Below are positions 28,665 through 39,412 of a DNA stretch of 64,000 bases, piece after piece (the first letter of the stretch is position 1; every line of letters starts with the position of its first letter). The notes under the pieces are model-generated. The model searched no databases and was not told the origin of the DNA. It saw nothing but the letters and a program-made list of their open reading frames with translations. Source of the DNA: an uncultured delta proteobacterium (lineage in GTDB: Bacteria; Myxococcota_A; Polyangia; Polyangiales; B10-G4); the NCBI GenBank assembly GCA_963727445.1, contig CAVSGI010000009.1, forward strand, positions 1 to 64,000. The letters are read 5' to 3'. A program made the position numbers and the translations under genes.

Positions 28665-30172
28665 TGACCGCCATCACGAGGCGCGGAGTCGCGCTGGCGA
28701 CGCTCTGTTCGTGTGCGTCGGTGCTGCTCTTCGCGTCTGCCGCGGCGGCGGACCGTCCCGACACGCCAGGCACCACCGAGCTCTTCCACTTCGACTCCAC
28801 CGACGTGGTGGAGACCTACGGCTCGCCCGGAGGCGACTTCCTCCTGCACTTCACGAGGGCGGGAGCGAACGCGGTACCCAGCGTCGACGCCGACACCTCG
28901 GGCGTGCCCGATTACGTCGAGAACCTCGCCATCCTCTACGACGACGTCCTCTCGTTCTATAGGGACGACCTCGGTTTTCGCGCGCCGTTGGATGACGGCG
29001 CCATCCTCGACAACGGTGGTGACGCGCGATTCGACGTCTATCTCGTCGACTTCGGCGGAGGTTCGGATGGCTCGTTCCGCACCGATGGGTGTGGTCTCGA
29101 CGGTGAGCCGCCCGGACACTGCGTCGGCTTCATGGTCCAGGAGAACGACTTCGTCGGCTACTTCTATCCGTCGGTCGACTACGCGAACCGCGTGCTGTCG
29201 AGCCACGAGTTCTTCCACGCCGTGCAGGCCGCCTACGACGCCGATCAAGGGAGCGTGCTCGCGGAGTCGACCGCCGTCTGGGCGACCGAGGCTTTCGACC
29301 CGACGCTCGACGACTTCGAAGGCTTCGTCGGTGGGTTTCTCGAGCACACCGATCGGCCGCTCGATCGCGGGCTCTCGGGGCCGGTCGATCCCTTCAGTTA
29401 CGGCGCGGCGCTCTTCATCCGCTTCCTCGACGAGCGCTTCGATCGATCCATCGTGCGCATGCTCTGGGAGGCATGCGAGACGCAGCCATGGCTGCCGGCG
29501 CTCGACGAGATACTCACGACCGAATACGACTCGTCCTTCGCGGAGGCCTTCACCGAGCTCGCTGCCTGGGACCTACACACCGGCAGCTACGCCGATCCCA
29601 CGATCGCGTACGCCGAGGGAGATGCCTATCCCCCGGTGACGACCACGATGGTCACCTTGCCGTACTCCACGGACACGCCGCTGCGCGCTTTCTACGCGTC
29701 GGCCCGGTACTTCTCGGGCGCGCCCGGCGGCCGCGACACCGTCGAAGCCGCGCTCGTCGGCGACACCGAGGACCTCGCGCTGATCCTGGCGGTGAGGCAG
29801 GGAAACACCGTGACCGTGGTCGACGGGGCGAGCGCGGACGCCGCGGGCGCAGACGAGGTATTCGCCGTCGTCGTCAACACCGCGCTCAGCGGCGACAGTC
29901 GCCGGCCGGGCCTGTGCATCGGTAGCCCCGACGAGGTGGAGGCCTGCCGCGCTTCGATGGCGCCGATGCCCGATGCGGGCATGATGCCGGACGCGGAGGT
30001 GGACGCGGACGTCGATGGGCGCGTGCTCGACGACGGCGGCGCCGACGCCGCCGCGATGCCCCCGACCTCCGACGGTTGCGGATGCACCGCGCCTGGCCGC
30101 CACGCCCCGACCCCAATGCCGTTCGCCCTCGCCCTCGCCCTCCTCGCCCTCCGCAAGGCACGGGGACGCTAG
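28664..30172 (+). CDS. Secreted zinc metalloprotease (MXAN_6640-like) with MYXO-CTERM-like tail
   Basis: SHEFFHAVQ (HExxH) plus ESTAVW; GCGC-TM tail. Confidence 0.8.
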   Translation: MTAITRRGVALATLCSCASVLLFASAAAADRPDTPGTTELFHFDSTDVVETYGSPGGDFLLHFTRAGANAVPSVDADTSGVPDYVENLAILYDDVLSFYRDDLGFRAPLDDGAILDNGGDARFDVYLVDFGGGSDGSFRTDGCGLDGEPPGHCVGFMVQENDFVGYFYPSVDYANRVLSSHEFFHAVQAAYDADQGSVLAESTAVWATEAFDPTLDDFEGFVGGFLEHTDRPLDRGLSGPVDPFSYGAALFIRFLDERFDRSIVRMLWEACETQPWLPALDEILTTEYDSSFAEAFTELAAWDLHTGSYADPTIAYAEGDAYPPVTTTMVTLPYSTDTPLRAFYASARYFSGAPGGRDTVEAALVGDTEDLALILAVRQGNTVTVVDGASADAAGADEVFAVVVNTALSGDSRRPGLCIGSPDEVEACRASMAPMPDAGMMPDAEVDADVDGRVLDDGGADAAAMPPTSDGCGCTAPGRHAPTPMPFALALALLALRKARGR

Positions 30173-30322
30173 ATTGACAATTGACTTTCGCCCTCGCCGC
30201 GCCCGCGATCCGCGGATGCGCCCCGCACGGGGACGCTAGATTGACAATTGACTTTCGCCCTCGCCGCGCCCGCGATCCGCGGATGCGCCCCCGCGAAAGT
30301 CAATTGTCAATCTAGCGTCCCC
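30158..30322. repeat. 94-bp palindromic element (30229-30322) with a 67-bp tandem partial duplication
   Basis: 30-bp IR GGGGACGCTAGATTGACAATTGACTTTCGC..GCGAAAGTCAATTGTCAATCTAGCGTCCCC; left arm repeated at 30162. Confidence 0.92.
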
Positions 30323-30377: not shown

Positions 30378-31481
30378 CTACTCTCGCGTTCCCGAGCTTT
30401 CCGCTCGCGTGCCGGGGAGTAGCTTGTCGAGGCCGTCCGAGCCGACGACGAGGCGAACCTCGTCGATCTCGCCCGCGATCTCCTTCAGCGACTCGAGCTC
30501 CTTGAGACGCATCAGGGTCGGGTTGTCGGCCATGACCTTGGCGGTGTTCGCCATCGAGCGGGTCGCCGCAGCCTCCTCGCGACGGAGGATGACGTTGGCG
30601 GCCGCGGCCTTTTCGGCCTCGATGACGCGGTTGAGCAGGACCTTCATGTCGCCCGGGAGGACGACGTCCTTCACACCGACGCTCAGGATCTGCGCGCCGA
30701 TCGCCTTCGCCTTCGGCGAGACGGCCTCCGCGAGGAAGCGCGTCATCGCGTCGCGACCCTCGAGGAGCTCGTCGAGGGTGACGCCGGCGACGTAGTCGCG
30801 CGCAGCGAGCTGCGCGGCGAGATAGATCACGTCACGGGCGTGATCGACCGTGCTGGCCAGCTTCATCGGGTCCGTGATGCGGTACTCGACGCTGAGGGTC
30901 AGGCGTAGGGTCACCTTGTCACGGGTCATGAGATCCTGACCCGCGATGGCGATCTGCGCCCGGCGCATGTCGATGTTCACGACCCGCACCGCGCCGTCCT
31001 CGGACCACAGGTCGTAGCGACCCGGGCCCAGGGAGCCGACCAGGCGACCCTCGACGTAGTGGAGACCGCGCTCGTGCTCCTGAACGGTTGCACGGACGAT
31101 CTCCGAACGCGGGATCACCTTCAGCGTCTGCTCGTCGAAGCTGGGAAGCGGCTTCTCGGTGGAGAGTCGCTTCAGCTCCACCGACGGGTCCACCGTCCAG
31201 TACCAGCGGGTGCCGGCGTGGAGGTACGTCATGGCGACGCCGTCGCGGAAGAGCAGACCCCGCTCGTTCGAGGCGAGATGCACCTCGGCGAACCAGTCGT
31301 CGGGCAGAATGGCGCGCACTTCCGGCAGCGCCTTGAAGACGAGCGCGTCCGTATCGAAACGCTGCTCGGTGTAGCGCGTGCCCCAGACTAGGTGACGGCC
31401 CGGACCGAGGGCCCGGATCGGCAGCCCATCCTTGAACAGGACGACACGCTCGTTCAGCTCGACCTTGATCTTCGTGAGCAT
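30378..31481 (-). CDS. SPFH/band 7 (slipin-type) protein
   Basis: GQDLMTRDKVTLR, GVKDVVLPG, RREEAAATRSMANTA, RLKELE. Confidence 0.9.
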   Translation of the reverse strand: MLTKIKVELNERVVLFKDGLPIRALGPGRHLVWGTRYTEQRFDTDALVFKALPEVRAILPDDWFAEVHLASNERGLLFRDGVAMTYLHAGTRWYWTVDPSVELKRLSTEKPLPSFDEQTLKVIPRSEIVRATVQEHERGLHYVEGRLVGSLGPGRYDLWSEDGAVRVVNIDMRRAQIAIAGQDLMTRDKVTLRLTLSVEYRITDPMKLASTVDHARDVIYLAAQLAARDYVAGVTLDELLEGRDAMTRFLAEAVSPKAKAIGAQILSVGVKDVVLPGDMKVLLNRVIEAEKAAAANVILRREEAAATRSMANTAKVMADNPTLMRLKELESLKEIAGEIDEVRLVVGSDGLDKLLPGTRAESSGTRE

Positions 31482-31511: not shown

Positions 31512-31605
31512 GGGGACGCTAGGTTGACAATTGACTTTCGCCCTCGCGGCGCCCGCGATCCGCGGAGGCGCACCGGCGAAAGTCAATTGTCAACCTAGCG
31601 TCCCC
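31512..31605. repeat. Second complete copy of the 94-bp palindromic element
   Basis: GGGGACGCTAGGTTGACAATTGACTTTCGC..GCGAAAGTCAATTGTCAACCTAGCGTCCCC; compensatory A-T to G-C change relative to the copy at 30229. Confidence 0.92.
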
Positions 31606-31809: not shown

Positions 31810-32055
31810 CGGTGAACACCTCCGCGCCTGTGTGATTCGGCTTTTGGACCGAACTAGCGTGATGGTTTTTCAGACCATCTGTTCACCGCTTAGGACCGTT
31901 ATGGTTACGGCCTCCTGCGTAACGGGCAGGTGGTGTTGTCAAGACTGACGCTCTACCAAGCTGAGCTACGCGCCCGCATGGGTGGGCGCGGTGGGATTCG
32001 AACCCACGACATTCAGTTTCCGACAGGTCACTCCGCTGGCGGAACACGTCCACCG
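31810..32055 (-). ncRNA. Circularly permuted tRNA-like RNA (YrlA/Y-RNA-like core 31937-32025) with 3' multi-hairpin extension
   Basis: Order is T-arm, loop-closed acceptor stem, D-arm; closed by TGTCGGAAACTGA/TCAGTCTTGACA; outer helix CGGTGGAC/GTTCACCG. Confidence 0.8.
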
Positions 32056-32124
32056 GATACACGACGAAGACGAAGCCCATCGTGCACGGCGACGCACCGG
32101 CATGATGCCTCTTGCCAGGCGATG

Positions 32125-32202
32125 TGGTGCAAACGGGAGGATTCGAACCTCCACTGAGCCGGGTCTGAGCCGACCGCCTCTGCCGAGTTGGGCTACGTTT
32201 GC
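32125..32202 (-). tRNA. tRNA-Leu(CAG), short variable loop
   Basis: GCAAACG/CGTTTGC acceptor, GTCGG-CTCAGAC-CCGGC, GGTTCGAATCC, ACCA. Confidence 0.85.
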
Positions 32203-33498
32203 GAAATTCGGATGGACGGTACCGACGCGCGATCGACGGAGCGCCGTGCGCCGGGGAGCGTCGTGAGCGCGCCGCTCTCCGGAGCGTCGAGGGCGGAGAG
32301 GAGCGCGTTCAGCGCCACCATGGTCCGCATGAGGAAGGGCATGAAGTAGGGCAGCTTGAATCGCTCCATCAAGAGCTGCTTCTTCATGGTGCCGGCCGCG
32401 TCCACAATCTCGCGTACGCGCTCCGAGCCGATCGCTTCGCCCCGAATCACCCCGCCGATGGCGATCCACTGCACCTCGGCGATCGCCTCGGCCGCGCGCC
32501 GATTGCCGATCTCGAGCGCGGCGTCCACGGCGCGGACGAAGCGCTCGCGGTCCGACGCGAGCGCGGCATCCCGCAAGTCGCCGAACGCCTCTCGCTGAGC
32601 GTCGTCGAAACGAAAGACGCTCCCGAAGTCGAGCACGCCTACCGTGCCGTCCTCCCGAAAGAAGAAGTTGCCGGCGTGGGCGTCAGCGTAGAGCACGCCG
32701 TGGTCGGCCAACGCCGACAGGACGACCCGGCGCACGGCGGCGGCCTGATTTCGCCGCACGTCCGCGTCGAAGGCCCGCGCGTGATCGACGGTCACCCCGT
32801 CCAGGAAGGTCGTCGACAAGACGCGGGCGCTCGAGACGTCGAGGGCGACCGCGGGGATCTCCAGATCCGGATCGCCCTCGATGAGCGCGGCGAAGGTCGC
32901 CATGTTGTCGGCTTCGCGCTCGTAATCGAGCTCGGCCAGAAAGCCCGACTGGATTCGGCCGATGAAGTCGCCGCTCTGTCCGCGCGGCATGAAGAACGCG
33001 GTGGCGACCTTCCCGATCGAGCCGACGTTCTCCATGTCGTGCTCGAAGGCTTCGCGAATGCCCGGGTGCTGCACCTTCACCGCGAGGTGTCGTCCGTCGT
33101 GGTGCTCGGCGTCGTGGACCTGACCGAGCGAGGCGCTGGCAAAGGGCTGGCGGTCGAAACGCGCGAAGACCTCTTCGGGCGGTGCGCCCGAGATCCTCCT
33201 CCACGAGCGCGGCGATCGCGTCGTAAGGGGAGCGCGCCGCCTGGGCGCGGAGTCTGGCGAGGGCGGGTCCGACCTGCTGTTGGACCTCAGGGGGGAGATT
33301 CGCCTCGAGGAGGCCAGCCATCTGACCGACCTTGGTGCCGAGGCCGCGGAGCTCGCCGAGGCGATCGACCGCGCTCTCGAGGCCCTTGCCCGAGCCGGCG
33401 ACCATCGAGGCCGCCGTCCCGACGCCCGCGCGCGCCATCGAGGCGAGGCGCCCGAGACGACCGGTCTTCAGCTTCTTGGAATCCCCGCCGTCCCCCAT
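32193..33498 (-). CDS. ABC1/AarF/UbiB atypical kinase; apparent frameshift ~33185
   Basis: KVGQM, AVKVQHPGI, ELDY.REA, ADAHAGNF, LDFG. Confidence 0.85.
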
Positions 33499-33564
33499 GA
33501 CCGAAGGATTGTGCCAATCGGCGGCCGAGGGAAGTGGGAGCCGACGCGTCGGCTACGCCACGAT

Positions 33565-33642
33565 TGGAGCCCCTGGGGGGAATCGAACCCTCCATTTCCG
33601 GTTTGAGAGACCGGCGTCCTCACCTGATTAGACGACAGAGAC
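33565..33642 (-). tRNA. tRNA-Glu(CTC)
   Basis: CCGGT-CTCTCAA-ACCGG arm, GTCGTCTAA D-arm start, GGTTCGATTCC, CCA; U discriminator. Confidence 0.85.
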
Positions 33643-33688
33643 AGGAAGCGCCACGACCCGATACTGCTGGGCAGGGCGCAGACGAAAC

Positions 33689-33758
33689 GGAGCGGTTGGG
33701 GGGAGTCGAACCCCCTTCGCGAAGATGGCCACCTCGTTACTCACCAGCGAGCAACCGC
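33689..33758 (-). tRNA. Atypical tRNA-Gly(GCC)
   Basis: GCGGTTG/CAACCGC-T acceptor, CGAGG-TGGCCAT-CTTCG, GGGGGTTCGACTCCCCC; shortened D region. Confidence 0.7.
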
Positions 33759-33761
33759 ATG

Positions 33762-33835
33762 TGCCGGCCTGCTCAGGTGCCTAATCCGAGCTTCCGGCAG
33801 TGAGCGCGAGCTTTAGGAGGGAGCTCTCACTCACC
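33762..33835 (-). ncRNA. Two adjacent stable hairpins in the tRNA-array spacer
   Basis: Long stem with loop CCCTCCTAA; second stem with loop ATTAGGCAC. Confidence 0.55.
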
Positions 33836-33958
33836 GAAATCTGTCTGGCTGCCGGGATGCACTCCCGGCTCCGCGCTGCTGCGCTCCCGATCCCGCTGAC
33901 GCCGCTGCGCGGCTTTCGCGGGCTCGTACGCTCCGCAGCGCTCCGCCTTCTCCTAGAC

Positions 33959-34029
33959 TGGCACGCCGCCGAGGAGTCGCACCTCGTCCCACGGGTTTGG
34001 AATCCGATCGGCTCTCCAGCCTGCGACGT
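33959..34029 (-). tRNA. Degenerate tRNA-Trp(CCA)-like
   Basis: ACGTCGC/GCGGCGT-G-CCA acceptor, loop TTCCAAA, T-loop TGCGACT, minimal D-arm. Confidence 0.65.
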
Positions 34030-34040
34030 ATGGAGGAAGA

Positions 34041-34129
34041 CGGAGGAAGACGGAGGAATCGAACCCCACACCCAGAGGTGCGCACTGTTTTCGAGACAGG
34101 CCTGACCGCCAGAGATCAGTTCGTCTTCC
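34041..34129 (-). tRNA. tRNA-Ser(CGA), atypical
   Basis: GGAAGAC/GTCTTCC acceptor, loop CTCGAAA, long variable arm, GGTTCGATTCC. Confidence 0.8.
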
Positions 34130-34133
34130 GAGA

Positions 34134-34209
34134 TGGCGCCTTTGGCAGGACTCGAACCTGCAACCTCTCGCTCCGCAAGCGAACGCTCCTCCAGTCGAGC
34201 TGCAAAGGC
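34134..34209 (-). tRNA. tRNA-Arg(GCG)
   Basis: GCCTTTG/CAAAGGC-G-CCA, TTCGC-TTGCGGA-GCGAG, GGTTCGAGTCC. Confidence 0.85.
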
Positions 34210-34212
34210 GGA

Positions 34213-34286
34213 TGGCGCCGCGTACGGGAATCGAACCCGTCTCGCCCGGGAGACAACCGGATCGCATCCCAGATGCGCAACGCGGC
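34213..34286 (-). tRNA. tRNA-Asp(GTC)
   Basis: GCCGCGT/ACGCGGC-G-CCA, loop TTGTCTC, GGTTCGATTCC; unusual D-arm. Confidence 0.8.
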
Positions 34287-34337
34287 TCGGACAGTGAGTC
34301 GACCGTCTCGCCCCGTCAGAGACGAGCCGGTCGTTAC

Positions 34338-34856
34338 TCAAACCATTTCACTGTTCCAGAAGAGCCAGCTCTTCCACGTCTGCGGGACGTCGGTGAGACG
34401 CACGTGGAAAGCCTCCATGGGAAGCCAGGTCGGCTTCGTCGGACGGCTCTTCAGGACCAGGCGCGCCTCCTTCGGAGTCTTCGCGCCCTTGTCGTGGTTG
34501 CACGGACCGCAAGCGGTCACGACGTTGTCCCACGTGGTCTTGCCGCCCCGCGAGCGCGGGATGACGTGGTCCATGGTCAGCTTCTTCGCCGGCAGCGTAT
34601 CGCCGCAGTACTGGCAGGTGAACTCGTCACGCACCATCACGTTGAAGCGCGAGAAGCGGATCGCCTGCTTGCGGCGGCTGATGCGGCGCACCAGGCGCAC
34701 GACAGCCGGCATGCGGATCGTGAGGCTCACCGAGCGGATCTCCTCGTCGTACTCCTCGACGACCTCGACCTTGCCCCCGAAGAGCATGGTGACGGCCTTC
34801 TGCCAGCTGACGATGCGGTGTGGTTGGTAGCCTTGGTCCAGTACAAGTGTACGCAT
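34338..34856 (-). CDS. HNH endonuclease
   Basis: RD.FTCQYCG, TMDHVIPRSRGG, WDNVVTACGPCN..K; AAGGAAG RBS. Confidence 0.93.
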   Translation of the reverse strand: MRTLVLDQGYQPHRIVSWQKAVTMLFGGKVEVVEEYDEEIRSVSLTIRMPAVVRLVRRISRRKQAIRFSRFNVMVRDEFTCQYCGDTLPAKKLTMDHVIPRSRGGKTTWDNVVTACGPCNHDKGAKTPKEARLVLKSRPTKPTWLPMEAFHVRLTDVPQTWKSWLFWNSEMV

Positions 34857-34999
34857 GGCTGCTTCCTTACCTGCGCGACCTCGCAGAGGAGACGCGCCAT
34901 GGCTGTTGATGGATGTGGGTTTGGGTTGGTTAAGTATGGGTCCGCCGTCTGAAGACGCACGAACGGCCGAGAAAAGTCTGTGTGAATCACTTCTGGAGA

Positions 35000-35076
35000 T
35001 GGTCTGCGTAGAGGGATTTGAACCCCCGGCCTCTCGGACCCGAACCGAGCGCTCTTCCAAGCTGAGCTACACGCAG
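35000..35076 (-). tRNA. tRNA-Pro(CGG)
   Basis: CTGCGTG/TACGCAG-A-CCA, CTCGG-TTCGGGT-CCGAG, GGTTCAAATCC. Confidence 0.92.
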
Positions 35077-35198
35077 GTGTGGGAAGCTGATCCGGCTCGT
35101 GGGCAACCCTCCGGTCGCTGCTGCGGCTTCGTGTCGCCTGGCGGCGCCACTGCGCTTCCGCCGCGCCCTGCGGGTTGCCCCCGAGCACTCCCGTAGAG

Positions 35199-35272
35199 TG
35201 GTGGACACGGTGGGACTCGAACCCACGTCTCCTGCTTACATGCAGGCGCTCTCCCAGTTGAGCTACGCACCC
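35199..35272 (-). tRNA. tRNA with Ala-type body (G3:U70) and aberrant 6-nt anticodon loop
   Basis: GGGTGCG/CGTGTCC-A-CCA, TAGCTCAACTGGGAGAGC, CCTGC-ATGTAA-GCAGG. Confidence 0.75.
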
Positions 35273-35348
35273 CCGCAGGCGGATGACGATCACCCGCCTG
35301 CTTCTTGCGGCATCGGCCCTGCCCGCCACGGCCCCGACCGATGCCTGA

Positions 35349-35358
35349 TTGTCAAAGA
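35349..35358 (-). promoter_or_regulatory. boxA-like antitermination motif
   Basis: TCTTTGACAA about 77 nt before the first tRNA. Confidence 0.55.
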
Positions 35359-35422
35359 CTCCTCCGCTTCTCCGGTGAGAAGACAGACCGCCACTTCGCG
35401 CACGCGCTCGCGTGACGGAACG

Positions 35423-35454
35423 AAAAAGGCCACCGCGGAATGTCCGTGGTGGCC
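35423..35454 (-). terminator. Attenuator-type intrinsic terminator in the operon leader
   Basis: GGCCACCACGGA-CAT-TCCGCGGTGGCC-TTTTT. Confidence 0.85.
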
Positions 35455-35477
35455 CCGGGTGCAGCTCTCCCCGAGAG

Positions 35478-35573
35478 CTACGTGAGGGTGCCCCTCCACG
35501 GACGAAGCAGGGCATCGCAACCGCGACCGAAAGGTCGCGCCAGATGAGATTCATTGCTCGTCCAGTACTTCAT
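35478..35573 (-). CDS. Putative 31-aa leader peptide MKYWTSNESHLARPFGRGCDALLRPWRGTLT
   Basis: ATG to TAG ORF between promoter and terminator; overlaps the antiterminator strand. Confidence 0.65.
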   Translation of the reverse strand: MKYWTSNESHLARPFGRGCDALLRPWRGTLT

Positions 35574-35582
35574 CGTTCCGCC

Positions 35583-35610
35583 CAGATAAGTCGCGCCTCG
35601 CGCATGTCAA
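35583..35610 (-). promoter_or_regulatory. Putative sigma70-type promoter of the RNA operon
   Basis: Perfect TTGACA (35610-35605), 16-bp spacer, weak -10 TATCTG. Confidence 0.55.
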
Positions 35611-35686
35611 CCGCCTTTGTCGTCTCGCGACGCCCGCCCGGTTGCTTACCGCGGGCGGCAGCGTATGGTCCGGCCACGGAGCTCCC

Positions 35687-36934
35687 TTGAAGACGATCCG
35701 AAAGCGCCGCGTGGTGATCACCGGGATCGGGATGGCGTCGCCCATCGGGCACGACCTCGACACGGTCAGCGATGCGCTGCGCCACGACCGCCACGGCATC
35801 CGCCACGTCTCCGAGTTCGAACGCATCGGCGAGCTGCAGACCCGACTCGCCGGCGTGGTCGACGACGTCGATCTCTCTCGGCGCTGGCCACGGCAGCGCA
35901 CGCGCTCGATGGGTCGCGTCGCGCTTCTCGCCGCGCACGCCACCGACGCTGCCCTCGAGGACGCCGGCATCGACGAAGAACGCCGCAGCGCGCCCGACGT
36001 CGGCCTCGCCTACGGCTCCACCCACGGCTCCTCGGTCGAGCTCGAGCGCTTCTGCCGCAAGGTGTTCGGCAACGACAGCCTCGAAGGGATCTCGTCCAGC
36101 TCCTATCTCCGGTTCATGAGCCACACCACCACCGCGAACCTCGCCGGCCTCTACGGCATTCGCGGGCGCGTCATCTCCACCTGCGCGGCCTGTGTGTCGG
36201 CGAGCCAGGCGGTCGGCGCCGGATACGAAGCCATCAGCGTCGGCGCACAGAAGGTGATGATCTGCGGCGGCTCCGAAGAGCTGCACTGGGTCCCGGCCGG
36301 CGTCTTCGACATCCTCTTCGCCACCAGTCATCGCTACAACGATCGTCCCCATCTCAGCCCGCGCCCCTTCGACGTGGCTCGCGACGGACTGGTGATCGCC
36401 GAAGGCGCCGGCACCGTCGTCCTCGAAGAGCTCGAGCACGCCAAGAAGCGCGGCGCGCACATCCATGCCGAGGTCCTGGGCTACGGTACGAACTGCGACG
36501 GCTCTCACCTCACCGCGCCGTCCGCCGAAGGCATGTCCGACGCGATGCGTCTCGCGCTACGGGACGCGGGTCTCGTAGCGAGCGACATTCAATACGTGAA
36601 CGCGCACGCGACCGCCACGCAGGTGGGCGACGTGAGCGAGAGCCACGCGACGCGGGCGGTGCTCGGCGAGAAGGTGCCGATCTCCTCGACGAAGGGATTC
36701 ACCGGCCATACACTCGGTGCCTGTGGAACGATCGAAGTCGCGCTCTGCATCGCGATGATGAGAGACGGTTTCCTCGCTCCCACGCGCAACCTCCGCGAGC
36801 TCGATCCCGAGTGTGCCTACCTCGACTACATCACCGATGAGCCGAGATACGAGACGGTCGATCGCATGATGAGCAACAACTTCGCCTTCGGCGGCATCAA
36901 CACCTCGCTGATCCTCGGCCGGTGCTCCGAATGA
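35687..36934 (+). CDS. Beta-ketoacyl-ACP synthase (aryl-polyene cluster type)
   Basis: VVITGIG, AAC, NAHATAT, GHTLGA, NNFAFGG. Confidence 0.9.
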   Translation: MKTIRKRRVVITGIGMASPIGHDLDTVSDALRHDRHGIRHVSEFERIGELQTRLAGVVDDVDLSRRWPRQRTRSMGRVALLAAHATDAALEDAGIDEERRSAPDVGLAYGSTHGSSVELERFCRKVFGNDSLEGISSSSYLRFMSHTTTANLAGLYGIRGRVISTCAACVSASQAVGAGYEAISVGAQKVMICGGSEELHWVPAGVFDILFATSHRYNDRPHLSPRPFDVARDGLVIAEGAGTVVLEELEHAKKRGAHIHAEVLGYGTNCDGSHLTAPSAEGMSDAMRLALRDAGLVASDIQYVNAHATATQVGDVSESHATRAVLGEKVPISSTKGFTGHTLGACGTIEVALCIAMMRDGFLAPTRNLRELDPECAYLDYITDEPRYETVDRMMSNNFAFGGINTSLILGRCSE

Positions 36935-38172
36935 CCGAGGAGCGCCTCGACGTCGTGGTCCTCGGCGCGGGCCCCGCCGGCAGCACCTGTGCGCACCTCC
37001 TCGCGAAAGGCGGGGCGAAGGTCCGTGTGCTCGAAAAGGAGAGGTTCCCCCGCTTTCACGTGGGCGAGTCGCTTCTGCCCTGCGAGAACGCCATCTTCGA
37101 GCGGCTCGGCTTCGACATCGGGGGAGGTGATTACCTCTACAAGGCGGGCGCGGAGTTCATCGACGAGCGCACAGACGACATCGCCGACTATCCCTTCGCC
37201 GGCGGGCTCCCCGGAACGCCCTCCCACGCCTACCATGTCGAGCGCGCGCGATTCGATCACGAGCTCGCCCAGCTCGCGGCAAACGCGGGCGCCGAGATCC
37301 GTTTTGGCGTCAAGGTGCGGAACGTCGATGTTTCTGCCGACGAAGTGACCATCTCGGCCGAAGACGGGGAGCACCGCGCGCGCTTCGTGATCGACGCGAC
37401 CGGGCAGGACGCGTTCCTCGCCCGCCGCCGCAAGTCGATCCGTCCCATCAAGGACTTCGGCGTGGTGGCCGCGTTCGCACAATTTTCGGAGCTCTCACCC
37501 GAGTCGGTCGCCGAGCTGACCGAGACCGGCAACATCAAGATCCTGATCCACGACGACGGGTGGGCTTGGCTCATCCCCCTCACCGGTGGCCGCTTGAGCT
37601 TCGGCGTGGTCTCGCGCCGCGGCGGTCTGGGCACCGGCATGATCGACGCGGTGCAGTCGAAGTCGAAGCTCATCGCGCGCCTGACCCGCGGGGCGAAGCG
37701 CGCCGACCCGCAGCTCGTCCGCCACTTCGGCTACGTCAACGCCGAGCCCTACGGCGCGCGTTACGCGTGCATCGGGGATTCGGCGGCCTTCCTCGACCCC
37801 GTCTTCAGCTCCGGCATCTTCCTCGGGATGAAGAGCGCCGAGATGGCGGCGGACATTCTCGGACCCGCCCTCTCGGACGGGACCGAGGCGCGGCCGGATC
37901 TCCTCGATCCGGTGAAAGCGAAGATGCGCGAGGCCTACGTCGCCTTTGGGTCGCTGATCCGCAGCTTCTACTCGACCAATCTGGTCAAGCACTTCTTCTT
38001 CCACCCGGACCCGGAGCCCGAGCTCCGGGCGGGCCTCACCAGCATCCTCGCCGGCGACGTCTTCCGGGAAGACAACAAGTTCCAGAATTCGATCACCAAA
38101 GGCCGTCGCCTTTGGACGCCGGAATCCGTGGCCCAGGAGGAGCTCGGAGCGCGCTCGCCCCGCGGGCGTTGA
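36931..38172 (+). CDS. Flavin-dependent halogenase-like protein
   Basis: GAGPAG, FPRFHVGESL, WAWLIP (WxWxIP), GDSAAFLDPVFSSG. Confidence 0.85.
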   Translation: MTEERLDVVVLGAGPAGSTCAHLLAKGGAKVRVLEKERFPRFHVGESLLPCENAIFERLGFDIGGGDYLYKAGAEFIDERTDDIADYPFAGGLPGTPSHAYHVERARFDHELAQLAANAGAEIRFGVKVRNVDVSADEVTISAEDGEHRARFVIDATGQDAFLARRRKSIRPIKDFGVVAAFAQFSELSPESVAELTETGNIKILIHDDGWAWLIPLTGGRLSFGVVSRRGGLGTGMIDAVQSKSKLIARLTRGAKRADPQLVRHFGYVNAEPYGARYACIGDSAAFLDPVFSSGIFLGMKSAEMAADILGPALSDGTEARPDLLDPVKAKMREAYVAFGSLIRSFYSTNLVKHFFFHPDPEPELRAGLTSILAGDVFREDNKFQNSITKGRRLWTPESVAQEELGARSPRGR

Positions 38173-38233
38173 AGATTCGGGCTCGTAGGGCGGTCGTAGA
38201 CGCGTGTCTGCTTTCGGATTAACGTCACCCGCC

Positions 38234-39412
38234 ATGGCGAAGCGGCGAACGCCCCTGCCCATCACCGCCCATGCAGCGGTCAACGCCCTCGGCCGAAGCA
38301 CGGCGGAGGTGCTCGCGAACCTCGACGCGGGGAGGAGCGGCTTGCGCCCGCCCCCATTCGAGGTGCCCCTCACCACCGTCGTCGGCGCCATCCCAGGCGA
38401 GCTCGCGCCTCTGCCCTCCGAGTGGTCCGACTACGACTGCCGTCTCTCGCGCATGGCGAAGCTCGCCTACGACGAGGTCCACGCCGCGGTGGTGGCGGCG
38501 CGGGAACGCTGGGGCGCGGAGCGGGTGGCGGTGATCCTCGGCACCAGCACCGGCGGTCTCCACGCCACCGAGCGCGCGTATTTCCAGTGGCGTGACGACG
38601 GCACGGTGCCGGACGACTTCGACTTCCACCGCCAGCACGACTTCAACGGGTTGGGCGAGCTCCTCTCCAAGCTGTCCGGCATCGACGGTCCGACCTACAC
38701 GCTGAGCACCGCCTGTTCTTCGAGTGGCAAGGTGATGGCCGCGGCGTGGCGCTTGATCGAGGCGGACGTGATCGACGCGGCGCTGGTGGGCGGCGTCGAT
38801 AGCCTCTGTCGGATGACCCTTCAAGGCTTCCACGGTCTCGGCGTGCTCTCCGACACGCACTGCCGGCCCTTCAGCGCCGAGCGCAAGGGGATCAACATCG
38901 GCGAAGGGGCCGCCTTCCAACTCATCGAGCGCGAAGGCGACAGCGACGTGTGGGTCCTCGGCGTCGGCGAATCGAGCGATGCCCACCACATGAGCTCGCC
39001 CCACCCCGAAGGGCGCGGCGCGGCCGAAGCGATGAGCCGCGCGATGGCGCAGGCGGGCCTCGAGGTCGAGGACATCGATCACATCAACGCCCACGGCACC
39101 TCCACGCTGCTCAACGACAAGGCCGAGGCCATCGCCATCCACGCCCTCTTCGGCGATCGCGTTCCGGTGGTCTCCACCAAGGGATTCACCGGTCACCTCC
39201 TGGGCGCAGCCGGCGGGACCGAGGCCAGCTTCGCCATCCACGCCGTTCGGAGCAATCGCATCCCTGCGAACCTCGGCGTCGAGCCCAAGGATCCCGACGT
39301 CCACATCGACGTGCGCCCGGAGTCGCGCACGCAACGGGTGCGCCGCGTGCTCAGCAACAGCTTCGCCTTCGGCGGGAGCAACGTGAGCCTCCTGATCGGA
39401 GAGCGGCCGTGA
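38234..39412 (+). CDS. Beta-ketoacyl-ACP synthase
   Basis: TACSSS, NAHGTST, GHLLGAAG, NSFAFGG. Confidence 0.9.
   Translation: MAKRRTPLPITAHAAVNALGRSTAEVLANLDAGRSGLRPPPFEVPLTTVVGAIPGELAPLPSEWSDYDCRLSRMAKLAYDEVHAAVVAARERWGAERVAVILGTSTGGLHATERAYFQWRDDGTVPDDFDFHRQHDFNGLGELLSKLSGIDGPTYTLSTACSSSGKVMAAAWRLIEADVIDAALVGGVDSLCRMTLQGFHGLGVLSDTHCRPFSAERKGINIGEGAAFQLIEREGDSDVWVLGVGESSDAHHMSSPHPEGRGAAEAMSRAMAQAGLEVEDIDHINAHGTSTLLNDKAEAIAIHALFGDRVPVVSTKGFTGHLLGAAGGTEASFAIHAVRSNRIPANLGVEPKDPDVHIDVRPESRTQRVRRVLSNSFAFGGSNVSLLIGERP

Follow-up and report, generated by a model that had tools for sequence, protein, structure and literature searches.

What decides whether the spare tRNA genes that lie downstream of a short leader at 35423-35610 are transcribed? 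In the window, as we call the whole 64,000 nt stretch of DNA analysed here, leader and tRNA genes share the minus strand. The leader begins with a sigma70-type promoter (35583..35610) recognizable from its sequence as TTGACA at 35610-35605, a 16 nt spacer and a weak -10 element, TATCTG, at 35588-35583; both hexamers and their spacing are identical in a relative of the same genus (G001). The inferred transcription start falls about 3-5 nt ahead of the ATG of a near-leaderless upstream open reading frame (uORF; 35573-35478) of 31 codons, which encodes MKYWTSNESHLARPFGRGCDALLRPWRGTLT, ends in UAG and occupies a frame that is kept across the family of leaders described below. Recounting confirms the 17 amino acids and 27 distinct codons ascribed to this uORF in an earlier note, made from the sequence alone, that had proposed a leader-peptide attenuator sensing global translation capacity. 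Equally exact is the complementarity which that note had reported between late codons of the uORF and the 5' arm of the terminator: the 8 nt of GTCCGTGG (35503-35496), the 5' strand of an antiterminator supported by complementarity, folding and covariation, are the complement of CCACGGAC (35449-35442), and the helix continues beyond one mismatch.

Three further features complete the leader, all on the minus strand. An internal Shine-Dalgarno-like (SD-like) GGAGG (35493..35497), identified by its duplex with 16S rRNA and by the family consensus, lies 17 nt upstream of the stop codon and overlaps the antiterminator strand; a middle hairpin predicted by folding (35461..35481) encloses the stop codon and is a candidate RNA polymerase pause hairpin; and an intrinsic terminator (35423..35454), evident from sequence, folding and covariation, consists of a 12 bp stem with one mismatch (35454-35428) followed by 5 T. 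The folding z-score of the region is -4.8. A simple consensus scanner called neither promoter nor terminator at the leader, and no Rfam model matched 35423-35610 at the gathering threshold or at E up to 5, which rules out identity with the T-box or another Rfam family. A short uORF ahead of mutually exclusive antiterminator and terminator is what characterizes an attenuator, and there is a high probability that the window element is a real one. Beyond the terminator lies TCTTTGACAA (35345..35359, minus strand), which we take to be boxA-like; 14 of 51 relatives have the motif as well, none of them on the reverse strand, and it is similar to motifs in the rRNA spacer and rRNA leader of the window's own genome (G000).

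The partly degenerate tRNA array (31946..35272, minus strand, from tRNA and Rfam calls) comprises 8-10 tRNA-like genes, in the order 6-nt-loop tRNA, Pro-CGG, Asp-GTC, Arg-GCG, Ser-CGA, Trp-CCA (weak), Gly-GCC, Glu-CTC, Leu-CAG and a YrlA-like piece, most of which have further copies elsewhere in the genome. Within it lies an HNH endonuclease gene (34338..34853, minus strand; Pfam HNH_5, E 5e-18), giving the combination of extra tRNAs with HNH by which a tRNA L-array of the trn operon type is recognized; arrays of relatives reach 42 tRNA calls at a relaxed threshold. An ABC1-type atypical kinase gene, known from its ORFs and a domain match, has been inserted into the array and is broken up between two frames (32193..33498, minus strand). 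An SPFH/Band 7 gene (30378..31481, minus strand; domain match) is probably the end of the same transcription unit, and one family leader (L358) is likewise found upstream of an SPFH gene.

Several other elements were observed around the array. The YrlA-like tRNA mimic (32015-31946; Rfam E 4e-8, below gathering) precedes a stretch inside the array (31888-31914, minus strand) that nearly matches the 23S rRNA of the same genome (C21, about 695655-695685), in what is presumably the helix 69 region; similar 23S-like stretches occur in two related arrays (L109:6828, L110:6738), and the one in the window's array possibly encodes an rRNA-mimic RNA. REP-like palindromes with TTGACAATTGACTTTCGC arms flank the SPFH gene (31513-31600 and 30160-30320), and a palindrome with the same arms lies at about 65800 of contig C9 of this genome, upstream of a paralogous leader. 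On the plus strand a divergent ketosynthase, halogenase-like, ketosynthase cluster (35642-39412), whose start overlaps the promoter region, neighbors the leader in the genus relative as well.

The family to which this leader belongs was assembled in several ways. A DNA search of 60 relatives with the leader itself returned the genus relative as the sole real match, beside two chance matches; there the promoter, leaderless start, frame and terminator are kept around a different, 26-codon peptide, and the antiterminator, GTCTGCGG against CCGCGGAT, covaries with the window's pairing. Of 301 genomes of the order, 202 have a match to the HNH protein; from these 202 we took 80 HNH loci, many of them tRNA arrays. 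Terminator-like hairpins ahead of arrays provided 54 candidates and, once L104_-2093, whose terminator is not of the family type, and four near-duplicates had been removed before any counts, 49 leaders; these were hand-picked near HNH genes and are mutually related, so that P values overstate. Their shared layout runs from a TTGAC promoter through a near-leaderless ORF, GGAGG, the stop, an antiterminator strand at the stop and a variable hairpin to an intrinsic terminator of the form GCCGCC...GGCGGC, with the stop about 13 nt past the first G of GGAGG. The terminator pairs covary (40 relatives, 94% paired, equaled by 0 of 500 shuffles). Alignment of related leaders, which the earlier note had suggested as a check, thus finds both a conserved ORF frame and a covarying antiterminator, and on these sequence comparisons the window element is a short member of a putative attenuator family of this order.

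As to distribution, a strict pattern run over GTDB returned at least 120 stretches, mostly chance, of which 8 were kept by eye; carriers among the matches listed are Polyangium fumosum, Polyangium sp. 6x1, three Polyangiaceae and one Myxococcales genome. Within the order, a covariance model matched in 47 of 101 genomes; with ordinary terminators among the matches, this number overstates the family. The model had 68 further matches, from inside the order or from two named genomes, of which 30 were retained as family-like, and these model-derived leaders are circular evidence for the SD-like motif and for UAG. In the 19 loci read outside the order the family layout was absent, and what had matched were ordinary terminators after genes or tRNAs. 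A loose pattern tried on 121 genomes was discarded because its match rate was not above that of a reversed control. Tandem attenuator-like units, two or three per array and placed ahead of it or within it, were seen at L101, L102, L104, L077, L080 and L114, as well as at L129/L298/L302.

The uORF behaves as a reading frame throughout the family. Among 36 leaders with an assigned stop, the frame that ends at the conserved stop stays open over a median of 107.5 codons while the other frames reach 35, and in 31 of them no other frame is longer. In 46 of 66 leaders (the other 20 are without a promoter call) a TTGAC-type hexamer is followed, 32-61 nt further on, by an ATG, and this first ATG is in frame with the conserved stop in 39 of these 46, mostly at +35 to +43. 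Four of the seven out-of-frame leaders terminate at another GAGG-UAG unit, and two of the four, those with a terminator, are tandem attenuators.

When the window transcript is folded as far as the terminator loop, the antiterminator has a probability of 0.75-0.87 if there is no ribosome or if one sits at codons 1-20, and of about 0 with the ribosome at codons 21-30; at the last codon the value is 0.74 with a plain footprint and 0 when the SD duplex is added. These predictions and the family comparison agree with the earlier proposal that a ribosome near the end of the ORF masks the antiterminator. They do not agree with its extension that a stall at any earlier codon allows read-through, since only codons 1-20, the predicted sensing zone, free the antiterminator and codons 21-30 mask it. 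The full-length RNA folds to the terminator at every ribosome position, hence read-through must be kinetic; a 1:2 protector helix seen in this full-length fold is displaced in the intermediate. Family-wide, the segment around the stop prefers its own terminator arm over the arms of other leaders in 40 of 49 cases and beats upstream segments for pairing with the arm in 43 of 49, the window's cognate ranking 1 of 49 segments. Freeing the terminator arm takes 12.3 kcal/mol, but 6.8 once a ribosome occupies the stop, and in 42 of 49 leaders the saving exceeds 2. The genus relative gains nothing at the stop in this energy test (10.9 vs 11.2), although a ribosome from codon 17 onwards blocks its specific helix, and with a looser pairing measure just 20 of 49 leaders show a fall of more than 0.3.

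From this anatomy, conservation and composition we infer translation of the uORF, its coupling to transcription and induction of the array. Most likely the leader would turn on the spare tRNA genes whenever ribosomes slow, from any cause. A ribosome keeping pace with RNA polymerase would cover the antiterminator strand, from codons 21-30 in the window copy and from the stop codon in most relatives, whereupon the terminator would fold and the array stay off. An early stall, whether any charged or intact tRNA is missing or a drug targets the ribosome, would instead let the antiterminator fold first, and the polymerase would then enter the spare tRNAs, the HNH gene and the repair genes. More speculatively, GGAGG might pair with 16S rRNA as the stop codon enters the A site, detaining the ribosome there and making read-through less leaky.

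The make-up of the peptides bears on what such a leader could sense. The peptides are mostly unalignable (52 peptides of 26-121 codons, in 49 clusters), yet all 20 amino acids are present in 13 of 26 promoter-defined array leaders, for which the expected number is 1.9 from protein windows, 4.4 from position-wise shuffles and 3.3 from pooled composition. In a second set of 26 other leaders, delimited by a fixed start rule, 11 contain all 20, where 1.15 would be expected, and another 9 contain 19; complete leaders are spread across 22 of the 49 peptide clusters. Alanine is not enriched (11.1% in leaders, 12.2% in the proteome). The surplus of complete leaders supports the view that the leader peptide is retained for its amino-acid breadth and not for its sequence. 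The pan-codon sensor envisaged in the earlier note survives in this sense, as breadth of amino acids, but distinct codons are not above chance in the family (mean z -0.67; in 7 of 26 leaders they exceed the shuffles), and a surplus of them was rejected. In the window uORF, which is without Ile, Val and Gln, the presence of 17 amino acids in 31 codons is only marginal against chance (P about 0.02-0.06); its 27 distinct codons have P 0.11 under nucleotide shuffles and 0.001-0.003 under genome codon use, and all 17 amino acids occur already in codons 1-20 (P <= 4e-4, post hoc). The many codons ending in A or T, singled out earlier as unusual, are indeed commoner in leaders than in genes (GAT, for example, 0.59 vs 0.20; GC3 0.65 in the window uORF vs 0.88 in genes), but relaxed codon selection, which may underlie this surplus, explains it equally well as design.

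The first reading of this locus had left out the SD-like motif, as it had the tRNA-array target and the broad translation-sensing uORF attenuators already known (whiB7). GGAGG in the window forms a duplex of -9.8 kcal/mol with the 3' end of its genome's 16S rRNA and is shifted to -17 from the stop, where the family consensus lies at -13 to -9. If nothing but the length of the open frame is used to pick the stops, the peak of pairing to the anti-SD falls 13-16 nt ahead of the stop (34 of 49 at -15), with 0-9 of 49 at the listed positions upstream of -22 and downstream of -10. The motif is selected as nucleotides, because Glu codons at -4/-5 are GAG in 34 cases and GAA in 2 (vs 79:70 in the body, P 9e-7) and because in the window and in the genus relative it sits in another frame. 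Adding the SD duplex to the energy test hardly moves the family mean (6.8 to 6.5). A hairpin hiding the motif was considered and rejected (0.63 vs 0.61 in shuffles; 31 of 57). We found no published account, in searchable full texts, of SD-16S pairing put to use at a stop codon.

The constant distance between SD-like motif and stop could also be read as the mark of a sensor mainly of the end of translation (release or recycling at UAG) or of ribosome availability, with amino-acid breadth secondary. Such a reading would accommodate the frequency of UAG, the stop codon in 57 of the 66 leaders but in 529 of 3155 genes (a partly circular comparison), and has a precedent in basal trp read-through, which is set by release at the stop codon according to the accessible part of PMC1183508. 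We nevertheless consider it unlikely, as UAG doubles as part of the antiterminator strand (CCUAGG), and neither the surplus of leaders with all 20 amino acids nor the His and Trp leaders described below would be explained. Leaders of the erm and vmlR type are nascent-peptide arrest leaders, and the general layout here is like theirs; moreover, the two genus-level copies both begin with aromatic residues (MKYW, MFWNY). An arrest leader for a single drug class or metabolite is very improbable, however, for peptides of such varied length and so many clusters, in which the sole common motif is the Glu imposed by the SD-like sequence.

The folding results invite another alternative, in which the leader is a stand-alone small RNA or small protein gene with a constitutive terminator, and the array is driven by TTGACA at 35354: the equilibrium fold is always the terminator, and the minimum free energy structure closes the 5' and 3' ends together. 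We give this little credence. The hexamer at 35354 has no -10 box, and in that respect is no second promoter, and falls inside the boxA-like motif; it is the antiterminator that covaries while the peptide is unconserved. It would be just as surprising if the family were real and the window copy a decayed remnant that no longer works, despite the short ORF, the SD-like motif at -17, the degenerate tRNAs and the split ABC1 gene; the genus relative keeps promoter, frame, antiterminator and terminator, with compensating changes, across intervening sequence that has otherwise diverged. The conserved frame, covarying antiterminator, translation-stress targets and amino-acid completeness support a broad-sensing attenuator, and we regard it as probable that the leader is a ribosome-dependent transcription attenuator that would report general translation trouble. 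This conclusion must be tempered by the weak points of the window copy, with its 17 amino acids only and an array partly decayed.

Similar leaders stand before other operons. Targets of the family include HNH-containing tRNA arrays, Thg1, Hen1-Pnkp, TROVE, SPFH, HIT, MFS and aminotransferase genes, of which the MFS, aminotransferase and HIT genes have no evident tie to translation. A leaderless Trp-Trp leader with the SD-stop layout lies ahead of trpE(G) (L339, G081:C101:87401-87485) and is, by its predicted structure, a classical trp attenuator on the family chassis, while a Gln-rich leader (L325, G088:C744) precedes two tRNA-Gln genes, a sulfotransferase and an EamA transporter. His occurs near codon -7 in all four leaders examined before AAA_33-Thg1 operons (G000; L267, L290, L327), which encode an AAA_33 kinase, Thg1 and an R2K ATP-grasp protein, kinase and Thg1 being fused in the window's genome; these His-containing leaders have 17-18 codons, and the copy in that genome is a paralogous attenuator just beyond the window (C9:65521-65641, minus strand). 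Trp-Trp before trpE and His before Thg1 serve as internal controls. We tentatively propose, with slightly less than even confidence, that Polyangia possess one modular attenuator chassis in which a swappable uORF sensor is combined with an internal SD that would clamp the terminating ribosome on the antiterminator. Its sensors would be Trp-Trp for trpE, His for the tRNA-His guanylyltransferase, a Gln-rich peptide for tRNA-Gln and a census of all 20 amino acids for stress tRNA arrays and RNA repair.

If correct, these proposals offer an answer to how silent tRNA arrays outside the cyanobacteria might sense translation stress, namely by an RNA switch and not a repressor, and they add statistical grounds for believing that selection can act on a leader peptide for its complete set of amino acids and not for its sequence. 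A His leader on Thg1, if true, would be a case of a tRNA-maturation enzyme sensing its own product, and the SD-at-stop motif yields a testable claim on how long ribosomes dwell at termination. As the family is present in cultured Polyangium strains, it is open to experiment, and it could become a general reporter for translation inhibitors.

Full-text searches of the literature, with few subscription journals among the sources, turned up nothing on this family, on leaders with all 20 amino acids or on attenuated tRNA arrays. Several known systems share some of its parts. Like trpL and hisL, the family has a uORF, an antiterminator, a terminator and an end-positioned ribosome that would enforce termination (accessible text of PMC1183508); unlike them, its array leaders have no run of a single cognate codon and precede a target that is not biosynthetic. 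In the cyanobacterial tRNA L-array (trn operon), spare tRNAs with HNH and RNA-processing genes are induced by translation stress (PMC8421152; PMC10272220, both as accessible). There the DNA-binding repressor TrcR controls initiation, whereas the window array is apparently controlled by attenuation; the strings 'attenuat' and 'leader' do not occur in PMC8421152. E. coli toiL-topAI has a uORF that senses several translation stresses through translational repression and Rho (PMC12121999), and the Sinorhizobium DUF1127 uORF is a sensor of several such stresses through how accessible C-rich codons are (PMC12218461); in the accessible portions of these sources neither is described as an intrinsic-terminator switch of the kind seen in this family. 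The predicted working is like that of whiB7/wblC of actinobacteria, where efficient uORF translation leads to an intrinsic terminator and stalling to an antiterminator, and where the make-up of the uORF decides to which starvations it responds, the hits having included genes for 18 of 20 amino acids (accessible text of PMC10274678). Folding and comparison indicate that the window family likewise has a variable, diverse uORF whose translation would favor the terminator. It belongs to another phylum, however, and stands before tRNA arrays and genes for RNA repair instead of before a transcription factor; its leaders are complete for all 20 amino acids without alanine enrichment, unlike the Ala-rich whiB7 uORF, and carry an SD-like motif ahead of the stop, whereas 'Shine-Dalgarno' is absent from the main text of PMC10274678. 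The window leader is thus whiB7-like in its predicted working and, by its target and its lack of Ala bias, not a member of that class. Broad translation-sensing uORF attenuators are already known from whiB7; what draws attention here is the family-wide amino-acid census, the SD-like motif at the stop and the swappable leaders.
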